DNA of 64,000 nucleotides from NCBI RefSeq assembly GCF_988242995.1, contig NZ_OZ547043.1; one strand, 5' to 3'. Positions 15,001 through 27,000 of this stretch are shown piece after piece. Made by a program: the position numbers. Position 1 is the stretch's first letter. The number at the start of each line of letters is the position of its first letter.

Positions 15001-18000
15001 TTACCGACAAGAAGGGAAAGGGCCTTCCCGAGAGTGGTAAAGGAGAGGCCCTGGAAATACCCCACAGCCCCGAAAAAGAGCCAGTCAGTTGCTTAACTGA
15101 CTGGCATTACAACTATCTGCCCCGCTTTTTTTGCCACCCACGCCTGCCAGATGATATGGTCCGTCCCCGGATTTTTCGCAGACAAATGCTCGTTGCGTTC
15201 AATGAATAAAGGGGGTATCCAGTTTGGATCGTCGGGATAAAGTGATGACGGAAAAGCGATAAATGCCTTAAGGTCATTTTTATTAATTACTTTTTCAATT
15301 TTAATCATCAGCAGATCGCATTCCATAGTTCTGTGGGTAACAAATAATTAACGGTGACAAACAGGTTGCAACAGCAACGAACGGCACCTTAATAATCAAC
15401 CCAATGAATACAAACGACGAATAAATAGTATTTATTAATGATTACGATAAGGTTAGAGACTACACAGAAGCGCCACAATGCCTTTTGTCGATTTAAGGCG
15501 ACCGGACAAGGCTTATTCTTAATATATTCATAAATTAAATATCATTCACAATAAAAACAAAAAAACTCAAACTCATTATTTAAATCAATGTTCATTTTCA
15601 CACTGATGAAAATACTATCTCATTTATCTTTTATGCCTATATAATCCACCGCATTATTGTCATTTTATTTTTGATATCCAATTTTTTCGTGGTGTATATG
15701 TCTAATAAAATCTTTACGCATTCCCTACCTATGCGCTATGCCGATTTTCCAACGCTGGTTGATGCTTTGGACTACGCCGCTCTGAGTAGCGCCGGAATGA
15801 ATTTTTATGACAGACGTTGCCAACTTGAAGATCAACTGGAATATCAGACGTTAAAAGCGCGTGCCGAAGCTGGTGCGAAGCGGTTGTTATCGCTGAACCT
15901 GAAAAAAGGCGATCGCGTGGCGCTGATTGCCGAAACCAGTAGCGGGTTCGTAGAGGCTTTTTTTTCCTGCCAGTATGCCGGCTTAGTCGCCGTCCCGTTG
16001 GCGATTCCAATGGGCGTCGGTCAGCGGGATTCCTGGAGCGCCAAACTGCAGGGTTTACTGGCAAGTTGCCAGCCCGCAGCCATTATCACTGGTGATGAGT
16101 GGTTACCGCTGGTCAATGCCGCGACGCATAACAACAACCCCGAATTACATGTTTTAAGCCACGCCTGGTTTAAGGCATTACCGGAAGCCGATGTTGCGCT
16201 CCAGCGTCCAGTTCCGAACGATATCGCCTACCTCCAGTACACCTCCGGCAGCACCCGTTTTCCCCGTGGCGTCATTATCACCCATCGCGAAGTGATGGCT
16301 AATCTACGTGCTATAAGCCACGATGGCATTAAATTACGCCCTGGCGACCGCTGCGTCTCCTGGCTGCCTTTCTACCATGATATGGGACTGGTCGGCTTTC
16401 TCCTGACCCCCGTCGCCACGCAGCTCTCAGTAGATTATTTGCGCACTCAGGATTTTGCCATGCGTCCTCTGCAATGGCTTAAATTGATCAGTAAAAATCG
16501 CGGCACCGTTTCCGTTGCGCCGCCGTTTGGCTATGAATTGTGCCAGCGCCGCGTGAATGAAAAAGATCTCGCTGAACTGGATCTTTCCTGCTGGCGCGTT
16601 GCTGGTATTGGTGCTGAGCCGATCTCCGCAGAACAACTCCATCAATTCGCTGAATGTTTCCGTCAGGTTAACTTTGACGATAAAACTTTCATGCCGTGCT
16701 ACGGACTGGCAGAAAATGCGCTGGCTGTCAGCTTCTCTGATGAAGCCTCCGGGGTTGTGGTTAACGAAGTGGATCGCGACATCCTTGAATATCAGGGCAA
16801 AGCCGTCGCGCCGGGTGCTGAAACACGCGCCGTATCGACTTTCGTCAACTGCGGTAAAGCGTTGCCGGAACATGGCATTGAAATCCGCAATGAAGCAGGT
16901 ATGCCGGTCGCGGAACGTGTGGTAGGCCATATTTGCATCTCCGGCCCTAGCCTGATGAGCGGTTACTTTGGCGACCAGATTTCACAAGACGAGATTGCCG
17001 CGACGGGCTGGTTAGACACCGGCGACCTCGGTTATCTGCTGGACGGTTATCTGTATGTCACCGGACGCATTAAAGATCTGATTATTATTCGTGGCCGTAA
17101 TATCTGGCCGCAGGATATTGAATATATTGCGGAACAGGAACCGGAAATTCATTCTGGCGATGCGATTGCTTTTGTTACCGCCCAGGAAAAAATCATTCTG
17201 CAGATCCAGTGTAGGATCAGCGACGAAGAACGTCGTGGGCAGCTTATCCACGCACTGGTAGCACGGATCCAAAGCGAATTTGGCGTAACAGCGGCTATCG
17301 ATCTGTTGCCGCCCCACAGTATTCCCCGAACGTCCTCCGGCAAGCCTGCCCGTGCGGAAGCGAAAAAACGTTATCAGAAGGCTTATGCTGCAAGCCTTCA
17401 TGTGCAGGAATCCCTGGCATGAATCAAACTGTCGCGGTGACGGGCGCTACCGGGTTTATCGGTAAATATATTATCGATAACCTGCTCGCCCGCGGCTTTC
17501 ACGTTCGCGCATTGACGCGTACTGCCCGCGCTCACGTCAATGACAATCTCATCTGGGTGCGCGGTTCTCTGGAAGATACTCATTCACTTAGCGAACTGGT
17601 TGCCGGAGCCAGCGCGGTGGTCCATTGCGCCGGACAAGTGCGCGGGCACAAAGAAGAGATTTTTACCCGCTGTAACGTTGACGGCAGCCTGCGACTGATG
17701 CAAGCGGCAAAAGAGAGCGGCTTTTGCCAACGTTTTCTGTTTATCTCTTCGCTGGCGGCGCGCCATCCCGAACTCTCCTGGTACGCAAATTCCAAACACG
17801 TCGCCGAACAACGGCTGACTGCAATGGCTGATGAAATTACGCTGGGCGTTTTTCGTCCGACAGCCGTGTATGGTCCCGGCGATAAAGAGTTAAAACCGCT
17901 GTTTGACTGGATGCTGCGCGGCCTGCTGCCACGACTTGGTGCGCCAGATACACAACTCTCTTTCCTGCACGTCACCGATTTTGCGCAAGCAGTGGGTCAG

Positions 18001-24000: not shown

Positions 24001-27000
24001 CAATGTTGGTTGACCAGACAAAACTCCACGCGCCTTTAATGTGTCGGGCAGACTCAAACAGATTCAATTTGAAGGCGTTATGGATATTTCTGCGGCGTAA
24101 TTCGCGCGCGGCAAACCACCAGTACATGGTGCCGCCAACCAGATTCGACACGTACCAGGCAATAACAAAACCCGCAAAACCAAAGTCAAAATACCAGGCT
24201 ACGACGCTCCCCGCTGCGCGCAGAAAAGGTTTCGTCGCTTGCTGTACAGCAATTAGATCGAAGCGATCTACCGCACGCAGAATGCCGGTCGGCGTGGAGG
24301 AAGCCATTGAAGGAATGAGCGTGCAATACAGCGCGGCCAGCCAAAAGCTTTGGTCATCCAGACCTAATGAATGGGAAAGAAAAGGGAGTAAGGCAATGCC
24401 GCCGACAATCGCCACCGCGCCGCTGACGATATCCAGCGAGAAGGAAAATGAGACGACATTGCGGAATTGCTGCGGATTATTGTTGGTTAATGCTGGTGTT
24501 CCGTACTGCACCACCAACTGCCATGTCTGAAACTTAATAAAATCGCTGATCGACTTGGCGTACGATTGCACAATCACCAGTACGCCAAACATGGCGGGCG
24601 TCATCCCTTTACCGGCACACGAGAGCGCCAACAAACCCAGCAAGGCGCTCACGACATTACTGGAGCCTAACCAGGCGCTATTGCGAATAATGGTGCGAAA
24701 CGCGCCATCTGCAAACCAATGTTTGATGTTAAAACCCGCCAATTCAGCCTGACCTTATCGTTGATAGTAAAAAGTATCCCGCCAGCCTTAAGTTAAACTT
24801 CGGCGGTCAGAAACGATGGCAACCAGAGAAACCGCCTTCTGTGCCTGTTCCAGCACCTCGCTGTAAGGCGCTCTGGAATCAATCTCAAGAATTTTTGTGC
24901 CGTTATAGCCAATCGTCGACATGACGCCGATTTTGTCCTGCAGCTCGGCATAGTCATGGTCAGGCTTGCGGGAGATGGCAGTATCAATATCAATCCCCAA
25001 GCGAATGATTAATTCAGGACGGTATTGCGCCATTTGTTGGTATAAACGCCGTTCGCGCTGCGCCAGAAACATGCTGATTTTCCCGGTCGCACGTTCGACG
25101 CCGATCCCCGGTCCGTCATAATAAAAGCCCGAAATTTCAGCCTGCGGGAAGCGATCGCTGACCACCAGAACGCCACTTTGCGCCAGTCGCTGAACCTTGC
25201 GTAGATTCGCCATTCTTCGCAGCGAGAAGCAGTACATAATCACCGCCGCCCATAGCGCTGGAGATTTGGTTTTCATGCTTTGGGTTTTCGAGGATTTGGC
25301 CGCCAGTCGCCGTTCGAGCCAGACGCCAACCAACGGCAATCGTTTGATTTTGTCGCCGTCTTCGCCGGAGAGCAGCCCCAAATAGCGGCGCTCGGTTTGC
25401 CAGTGTTGTTGCAGCGATTTCACCAGGTCGGTGGTCAGCGTGGATTTACCGGTGCCATCACACCCGACCACCGCAATCAGCCCCGGAATGTAGTTGGGCT
25501 GCGGCACGGTTGTACTATTAACAGTTTGTGTTTGTAGTGCATCCATTCGTTAAATCATCCCCTATCCATTTTGGTGATCAGGAAAGCGCGGCGTGAATTG
25601 CGCGTAGTGACGCTTGCATAATTTCATCGGCTGGTTGCCGACCATCCAGTTCAAGGATCCTGGCGCCATTGAATGTCAGTTGCGGCGTAACGGCGATTTT
25701 TTCCTGTAACGCCGCCAGTTGATGGTCAGGTTTACGCGAAAACGCGGTTTGTTCATCAATGCCAAGACGAATCAACAATACGGGCAAATAAGACGCCATC
25801 CATTGGTACAGCTTCAGCTCGCGCTGCCTTAACATTTTTATCCAGCCGTTACCGCCCGTGGTTTTTGCCAATTGCGGGCCATCAAAGCGAAAACCCGGCA
25901 CTTCAACCTGCGGGTAGCGGTCGGTGATGAGCAGATAGCCTTGCTGGCTTTTACACAACATTTTGCGAAACTTGTACGCCCGCCAGCAGGAAAGCAGATA
26001 GATAACCAGCGCAGTAATATTGCCAGGCGGTGTTAAGGGCTTTTCGTGCACATGTGCCGCTTTACTTCGCAAATAACGCCCAAAAGGTGCGCCAATAACA
26101 GGGAGCTGTGAAATCCATTCGCCAATTCGCCCGGACGATTGCCCGAGATAAATGTGTTCTGTTGGCATTGTTGCTGCCAGTTCATTTACCAGGCTTGCCG
26201 TGAGGGTCGATTTACCTGAACCATCACATCCTACAATGGCAATAACACGCACTGGCGTGGAATTAATTATTGACATATTACGTTGATTCACGAAAAACCC
26301 GGCAGCAAATAATGTATTGAATATTACGTGGTCCGTGCTCAGAATATCCGTTCAACCTTATTGTGACAATGGTTAATTGTGACATTGACCTGAATTACGC
26401 TTTCATAAAAACATATTAACCAAATAAATATTTTTAATGGATATTTAAATTAAAGGATATATTCATGCAGTCAATAACACCTCCATTAATTGCCGTTATT
26501 GGTAGCGATGGTTCAGGCAAGTCAACGGTGTGTGAACATCTCATTACCGTTGTCGAAAAATATGGTGCTGCCGAAAGAGTTCATTTAGGAAAACAGGCCG
26601 GAAATGTCGGTCGTGCAGTGACAAAATTACCGTTGATGGGAAAATCCTTACATAAAACAATTGAACGAAATCAGGTGAAAACAGCAAAAAAATTGCCAGG
26701 ACCAGTTCCGGCGCTGGTAATTACAGCGTTTGTCGCCCGTCGCTTACTGCGCTTTCGTCATATGCTTGCCTGTCGTCGTCGCGGGTTAATTGTTCTAACC
26801 GACCGTTATCCTCAGGACCAAATTCCTGGCGCTTACGATGGTACAGTGTTCCCGCCTAACGTTGAAGGCGGCCGGTTTGTCTCATGGCTGGCAAGCCAGG
26901 AACGTAAAGCGTTTCACTGGATGGCGAGCCATAAACCTGATCTGGTCATCAAACTCAATGTCGATCTGGACGTGGCCTGCGCGCGTAAGCCTGACCACAA

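Follow-up and report, generated by a model that had tools for sequence, protein, structure and literature searches.

What does the block of about 11 kb between yghO and yghT encode in Escherichia coli, and what became of it in the K-12 reference? The question arises from a stretch of 64,000 nucleotides of contig NZ_OZ547043.1 (NCBI RefSeq assembly GCF_988242995.1), here called the window, in which a plus-strand and a minus-strand string of genes converge at this position. The plus-strand operon, together with yghO, consists of the ceramide-synthesis genes published for E. coli B, and to that extent the identity of the block is already known. The whole block plus yghO and yghT probably represents, in E. 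coli, the sphingolipid locus known from proteobacteria. The initial annotation, which described two operons missing from K-12, overlooked this published identity, the membership of yghO and yghT, and the disruption of yghO by the insertion sequence (IS) IS4.

The five genes ECD_02850-02854 of E. coli B/BL21(DE3) are yghO (also aca or bCerS, an N-acyltransferase), aasR, epi/cerR, acpR and spt (Padilla-Gomez et al. 2022, PMC9386255). In the window all five recur at this locus in unchanged order; it differs in that its yghO is split by IS4, and the minus-strand operon was outside the scope of that paper. AcpR-Ec (ECD_02853) bears 4′-phosphopantetheine and is acylated by AasR-Ec (ECD_02851). Spt-Ec prefers acyl-AcpR, and co-expression of AasR, AcpR and Spt yields 3-oxo-sphinganine (PMC9386255). 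In the window, Spt scores 600 bits against NCBIfam NF047599 (cut-off 500) and AasR 870 bits against NF006624 (cut-off 600). The dedicated acyl carrier protein (ACP) gene acpR lies directly upstream of spt, overlapping it by 1 nt, and is accompanied by its cognate acyl-ACP synthetase gene aasR. CerR belongs to the short-chain dehydrogenase/reductase (SDR)/epimerase family.

The conservation of the neighborhood extends the published set to the minus strand. Scanning species-representative genomes with an alignment of orf274, a gene of the minus-strand operon, gave 48 loci. Within the Enterobacterales they occur in Escherichia, Pseudocitrobacter, Hafnia, Sodalis, Serratia, Pantoea, Erwinia, Citrobacter amalonaticus, Shimwellia, Mangrovibacter, Tatumella, Klebsiella indica, Cedecea, Rosenbergiella and Rahnella, and beyond this order in Rhodanobacter, Dyella and Carnimonas. 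All 13 genes of the set (yghO, aasR, cerR, acpR, spt, lptG2, lptF2, ytfJ2, orf274, yghQ, yghR, yghS and yghT) lie at most 10 kb from orf274 in 33 of the 48 loci; those short of 13 are mostly interrupted by a contig end. The loci display three module orders, with four sub-modules unbroken: yghO/aasR-cerR-acpR-spt, yghT/yghS-yghR, yghQ-orf274-ytfJ2 and lptF2-lptG2. The encoded proteins are 50-98% identical across many Enterobacterales genera and beyond. Because the clustering persists through rearrangement, the genome comparison strongly supports a joint function of both operons with yghO and yghT.

Partial associations are seen around more distant relatives of orf274. In L057 (GCA_011516755.1, GC 0.60, 7089-10825), yghT-like, yghR/S-like, yghQ-like and orf274-like genes form one operon. 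The orf274 relative adjoins a yghT-like kinase gene on one metagenome contig (L053), where an NTP_transf_3 gene is two genes off, and adjoins aasR on another (L056). For the distant relatives P0206 and P0216, an aasR homologue and a yghT-like kinase gene are adjacent, on contigs too short for a firm conclusion. Separately, the yghR homologue of Carnimonas nigrificans has immediately behind it a gene for an OlsC/LpxO-like acyl 2-hydroxylase (L050, 14532-15272), a hint that the acyl chain of the product is hydroxylated.

The features of the window are listed in Table 1. The eleven open reading frames (ORFs) of the block are uninterrupted in the ORF map, four on the plus strand (15698-19785) and seven on the minus strand (19820-26291). 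The ORF map and folding confirm the initial picture of a ligase-SDR-ACP-Spt string and a minus-strand string meeting at a hairpin. The convergent gap spans 34 nt, from the spt stop at 19785 to the lptG2 stop at 19820. Its hairpin has a free energy of -28.3 kcal/mol (z = -5.3 against shuffles), with a weak T-tract on the plus strand and none on the minus strand. Start/stop overlaps had been claimed at six junctions, of which only four were found: aasR/cerR (4 nt), acpR/spt, lptF2/lptG2 (4 nt) and yghQ/orf274 (1 nt). The remaining junctions in both strings are gaps of 11-45 nt.

Table 1. Features of the yghO-yghT region, in window coordinates.
Feature	Coordinates	Strand	Description	Basis
yghO 3′ fragment	12745-13683	-	bCerS/aca ceramide-synthase homologue, severed from its start by IS4	collinear with yghO of L001
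IS4	13684-15109	+	1,426 bp; transposase ORF 13750-15096	
yghO 5′ fragment	15110-15326	-	start codon 15326-15324	
Span replaced in K-12 MG1655	15287-23673		8,387 bp, replaced by IS5 of about 1.2 kb	direct alignment
yghO/aasR divergent region	15327-15697		AT-rich, GC 0.31, 371 bp	
aasR	15698-17422	+	fatty acyl-AMP ligase / specialised acyl-ACP synthetase	NCBIfam NF006624
cerR/epi	17419-18333	+	NAD(P)-dependent SDR reductase of 3-keto group, by homology	weak NCBIfam matches only
acpR	18365-18613	+	specialised acyl carrier protein	ACP-like matches below cut-offs
spt	18613-19785	+	serine palmitoyltransferase	NCBIfam NF047599
GC-rich hairpin	19791-19818		between convergent stop codons	folding
lptG2	19820-20899	-	LptG paralogue	TIGR04408
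lptF2	20896-21966	-	LptF paralogue	TIGR04407
ytfJ2	21997-22557	-	exported YtfJ-family protein	TIGR01626
orf274 ('Ybl138')	22569-23393	-	predicted CHAD-fold, all-helical protein with conserved His/Arg/Lys	
yghQ	23393-24742	-	MOP/Polysacc_synt-type flippase candidate	weak MOP match
yghR	24788-25546	-	putative P-loop kinase paralogue	
yghS	25578-26291	-	putative P-loop kinase paralogue, thymidylate-kinase fold	
yghS/yghT divergent region	26292-26464		AT-rich, GC 0.30, 173 bp	
yghT	26465-27157	+	third putative P-loop kinase paralogue, divergent to yghS, in conserved module	

The minus-strand operon encodes a pair of transport proteins. LptG2 scores 307 bits against TIGR04408 (cut-off 240) and LptF2 318 bits against TIGR04407 (cut-off 230). 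Like the components of the LptB2FG extractor of lipopolysaccharide (LPS), both are full-length members of these families. They differ in being paralogues whose genes neighbor spt and not LPS genes, and their predicted substrate is a sphingolipid. Both are distant from the solved proteins: LptG2 matches E. coli/Shigella LptG with an E value of 1e-40 (143 bits over 350 aa), and LptF2 matches E. coli-type LptF with 94 bits. The pair is not the essential lptF/lptG copy, as the block is deleted in viable K-12. There is no ATPase gene among the block ORFs. In Caulobacter, LptF2 associates with LptG2, the housekeeping LptB is bound by them, and they are essential only if anionic sphingolipid is produced (preprint 10.64898/2026.04.12.717747). 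The same 2026 preprint draws the sphingolipid operons of E. coli UTI89, including the lptF/lptG paralogues, in its Figure 2B.

YghQ shows a weak MOP match (35 bits against NF007773, cut-off 273), and its 41% identical homologue in L057 bears PF01943. YtfJ2 scores 212 bits against TIGR01626 (cut-off 151) and has an N-terminal hydrophobic, signal-like segment. A different arrangement was observed in Rhodanobacter sp. L36 (L042, 10807-19619) and Dyella (L046), where the yghO homologue heads genes for an MdtA/MdtB/MdtC-like RND pump and a NodT-type outer-membrane factor. Both loci are without lptF2, lptG2 and ytfJ2 within 10 kb. The pump may be an alternative lipid export route.

The closest functional reference is the Caulobacter crescentus locus CC_1152-CC_1168 (PMC11324152; 10.64898/2026.04.12.717747), for which the homologies were taken from the cited papers and not from an alignment of our own. 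Both loci comprise aasR-cerR-acpR-spt, bCerS, an LptF/LptG pair without its own ATPase, and a Polysacc_synt-type flippase, in E. coli the candidate YghQ and in Caulobacter CC_1166, which is described much like it. Unlike Caulobacter, E. coli has no LptC2. Six Caulobacter head-group genes have, by their description, no counterpart in the E. coli block: a Tam41-like gene, the LCB5 ceramide kinase (PMC10331486), a CDP-alcohol phosphotransferase, a phosphoesterase and two nucleotidyltransferases. E. coli instead has three paralogues of predicted thymidylate-kinase fold, a predicted CHAD-fold protein and a YtfJ-family protein. The Caulobacter head group is ceramide phosphoglycerate (CPG/CPG2; PMC11324152; 10.64898/2026.04.12.717747). 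Since none of the six genes is present, the head group of the E. coli type, if any, is probably chemically different.

A pathway can be proposed for the locus. AasR would load a fatty acid onto AcpR, and Spt would condense acyl-AcpR with serine to 3-oxo-sphinganine, two steps shown for the E. coli B orthologues. As judged from Caulobacter homology, YghO (bCerS) would then N-acylate the product and CerR would reduce its 3-keto group to give dihydroceramide. Homology likewise suggests that YghQ may flip the lipid to the periplasmic leaflet, and that LptF2/LptG2 may borrow the housekeeping ATPase LptB to extract it towards the outer membrane. On the basis of fold and linkage, YghR, YghS and YghT could phosphorylate the lipid or a head-group precursor, the orf274 product could bind an anionic group, and YtfJ2 could act in the periplasm. 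These proteins would thereby assemble or process a head group that is phosphorylated and anionic, unlike ceramide phosphoglycerate. In one form of the proposal, phospho-anhydride formation would lengthen ceramide phosphate, and the resulting polyanionic group would be bound by the CHAD-fold protein. That yghR/S/T, orf274 and ytfJ2 constitute an undescribed phosphorylation-based pathway for a sphingolipid head group is a tentative idea, and we consider it rather doubtful. In K-12, nothing upstream of the kinases is left.

The predicted model of the orf274 product is confident (pLDDT 90.6). Like the polyphosphate-binding CHAD domains (PDB 6qv5, 6rn5, 3e0s), it folds into two all-helical bundles, and many basic and histidine residues are conserved; in the alignment, His, Arg and Lys are frequent among the invariant positions. 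It differs from them in standing alone, in its linkage to lipid genes rather than to CYTH/polyphosphate enzymes, and in having no match to PF05235. No match to any other Pfam family (E ≤ 0.001) or to NCBIfam was found either, the sole listed match being unrelated (E 0.48). Relatives in AFDB, with 26-41% identity, come from Sphingomonas, Zymomonas, Acetobacteraceae and Pseudomonas veronii. In six longer proteins with an orf274-like domain, NCBIfam identified no partner domain. A literature search found no paper with both 'CHAD domain' and 'sphingolipid'.

YghT is 34-36% identical to YghR and YghS, and the three are paralogues with a predicted thymidylate-kinase fold. In Pfam, YghS matches the P-loop only. 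RefSeq names yghS and yghT 'dTMP kinase', and the cut-off of the dTMP kinase equivalog is not reached. This name and 'LPS export ABC transporter permease LptF/LptG', both given by RefSeq/PGAP, are probably over-specific.

In the source strain of the window, yghO is broken. The IS4 in yghO has 18-nt terminal inverted repeats, lies 217 bp from the block and is flanked by a 13-bp target duplication, CAACTATCTGCCC, at 13671-13683 and 15110-15122. These 13 bp occur once in the comparison locus L001, where yghO is intact. The left edge of the block is thus not clean, with IS4 within yghO. The window yghO is split about 70 codons in, so it encodes no intact bCerS; the frame remaining in the 3′ fragment is an ORF at 12745-13659. 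The element is 99.4-99.5% identical to annotated IS4 copies, and a search of 5,426 complete E. coli genomes found none with an IS4 at this yghO site. The insertion looks recent, because the window proteins match common and widespread E. coli alleles exactly. The IS4 raised the idea of a Shigella origin for the window, which was set aside because the proteins have their exact matches among E. coli entries. It is predicted from the gene sequence that yghO::IS4 halts the pathway before ceramide in this strain, which would make it a natural ceramide-synthase null.

K-12 has lost far more of the locus. The MG1655 annotation shows yghO, IS5, a yghQ pseudogene without its C-terminus, yghR, yghS and yghT at this position. 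The initial annotation had placed yghO, an IS5 and yghQRST here and had taken eight genes to be absent, the ligase gene being the first and the 274-aa gene the last. The MG1655 alignment agrees, with IS5 at the junction. Besides the eight whole genes, aasR through orf274, the loss also takes 281 nt from the 3′ end of yghQ and, from yghO, the initial 40 nt and the promoter side. The 4-nt flanks of the K-12 IS5 are unlike, TTAA and CTAA. Since they differ, the element fits an IS-associated deletion, as had been proposed, and not a simple insertion.

Among the 5,426 complete E. coli genomes, 4,054 (about 75%) cover at least 80% of the 12-kb query. The acpR-spt piece was found in 4,139, always as a single chromosomal copy, and about 24% are without it. 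Further truncations were identified: IS26 cuts into ytfJ2 in EC17CM13 (L051) and IS3 into yghQ in 30COLEC (L052). In EC17CM13 the IS26 truncation adjoins an integrase/relaxase island downstream of tRNA-Phe. The IS5, IS26, IS3 and IS4 events show that the locus has been lost repeatedly through IS activity, and it is dispensable, given this recurrent loss. As to the window itself, its acpR-spt piece (18365-19785) is 99.6% identical to that of strain ETEC1738, and over the whole 12 kb (15000-27000) no complete genome exceeds 98.65% identity. This disparity points to a mosaic formed by recombination or to a lineage of which few members have been sequenced.

Some information on the control regions is also available. 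The initial annotation had both operons driven from AT-rich divergent regions. Their AT-richness is confirmed, and the placement of promoters in them is putative. A scan for sigma-70-like sites found 15, against 15.1 expected from shuffles. One of them lies in the yghS/yghT region on the minus strand (26369-26341), in a scan whose total is at the shuffle level. The counts of both the promoter and the terminator scans are not above shuffles and were not used as evidence. An Rfam scan of 12000-28000 matched no family. The last 120 nt or so before aasR (15578-15697) are nearly invariant among E. coli, two further Escherichia species and E. whittamii, and the rest of the yghO/aasR intergenic region diverges among them. 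Within the invariant stretch, TATAAT occurs at 15640-15645 with a poor -35 element, which suggests an activator-dependent promoter. Outside the block, a strong terminator-like hairpin with a 12-bp stem and a T-run on the minus strand is located at 27168-27196, between the convergent yghT and pitB.

Two other readings of the locus were weighed and rejected. The names given by RefSeq to genes of the minus-strand operon ('lipopolysaccharide biosynthesis protein', LptF, LptG, 'dTMP kinase') suggest an LPS or polysaccharide biosynthesis-export system that merely adjoins the spt operon, and LptF2 and LptG2 do pass the LptF/LptG equivalog cut-offs, while YghQ resembles MOP flippases. However, in the 33 complete loci neither gene set parts from the other in any of the three arrangements, the block ORFs include no glycosyltransferase or sugar-nucleotide genes, and YghR reaches 31 bits against a dTMP kinase cut-off of 83. 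E. coli has a separate, essential lptF/lptG and K-12 is viable without the block. The distance of LptF2/LptG2 from the solved E. coli-type proteins and the Caulobacter genetics, which link LptF2/G2 to sphingolipid, also speak against an LPS system, which we judge very improbable. The patchy distribution within E. coli might in turn indicate a genomic island of recent acquisition, never present in K-12. Yet K-12 keeps the truncated ends of yghO and yghQ with IS5 between them. As the initial annotation had noted, GC is typical (0.502 in the block, 0.516 in the whole window) and no integrase flanks the block; a search found no tRNA gene within the window. The position glcDC / block / pitB-gss is common to E. 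coli, two further Escherichia species and E. whittamii, and the linkage to pitB is retained in Pseudocitrobacter, Hafnia and Citrobacter amalonaticus. The typical GC, the missing tRNA and integrase and the shared chromosomal position across Escherichia agree in supporting an ancestral locus, as had first been supposed, and leave recent acquisition next to no probability.

Several observations weigh against a working sphingolipid locus. In the BL21 empty-vector controls 3-oxo-sphinganine was not seen (PMC9386255), and for this reason the native locus may not be expressed under laboratory conditions. In the searchable literature, no sphingolipid product was found to be reported for a native E. 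coli locus. The block contains none of the Caulobacter head-group enzymes, an LCB5-type ceramide kinase included. YghO has no Pfam match, the assignments of CerR, YghO and YghQ draw on homology and context, and the roles proposed above for YghR/S/T, orf274 and YtfJ2 are conjectural. The locus could then be a silent or decaying relic, in which the homologues are real and yet wild cells produce no sphingolipid, the yghO::IS4 strain least of all. The four independent IS events, the genomes without acpR-spt, the BL21 controls and the AT-richness of the control regions, typical of silenced DNA, would be consistent with decay. But all eleven block ORFs and yghT are intact in the window, about three quarters of the genomes keep the whole block, and the protein identity across genera argues for purifying selection. 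The window proteins are widespread alleles, so the IS4 event is recent. A relic is therefore unlikely in our estimate, and a functional sphingolipid locus, with its yghO recently disrupted in this strain, is the reading we prefer.

K-12 is the basis of most E. coli physiology. Since K-12 is without the locus, a sphingolipid and its Lpt-like route are easily overlooked, and the RefSeq names 'LptF', 'LptG', 'dTMP kinase' and 'lipopolysaccharide biosynthesis protein' are misleading. With the ceramide-synthesis genes already published, the remaining interest is in the uncharacterised kinase/CHAD/YtfJ sub-module and in the natural yghO knockout. The locus also lends itself to the study of how bacteria transport sphingolipids and of a head-group pathway yet to be characterised. 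If the proposed head-group pathway is true, the majority of wild E. coli could be able to produce a class of sphingolipid chemically unseen so far.

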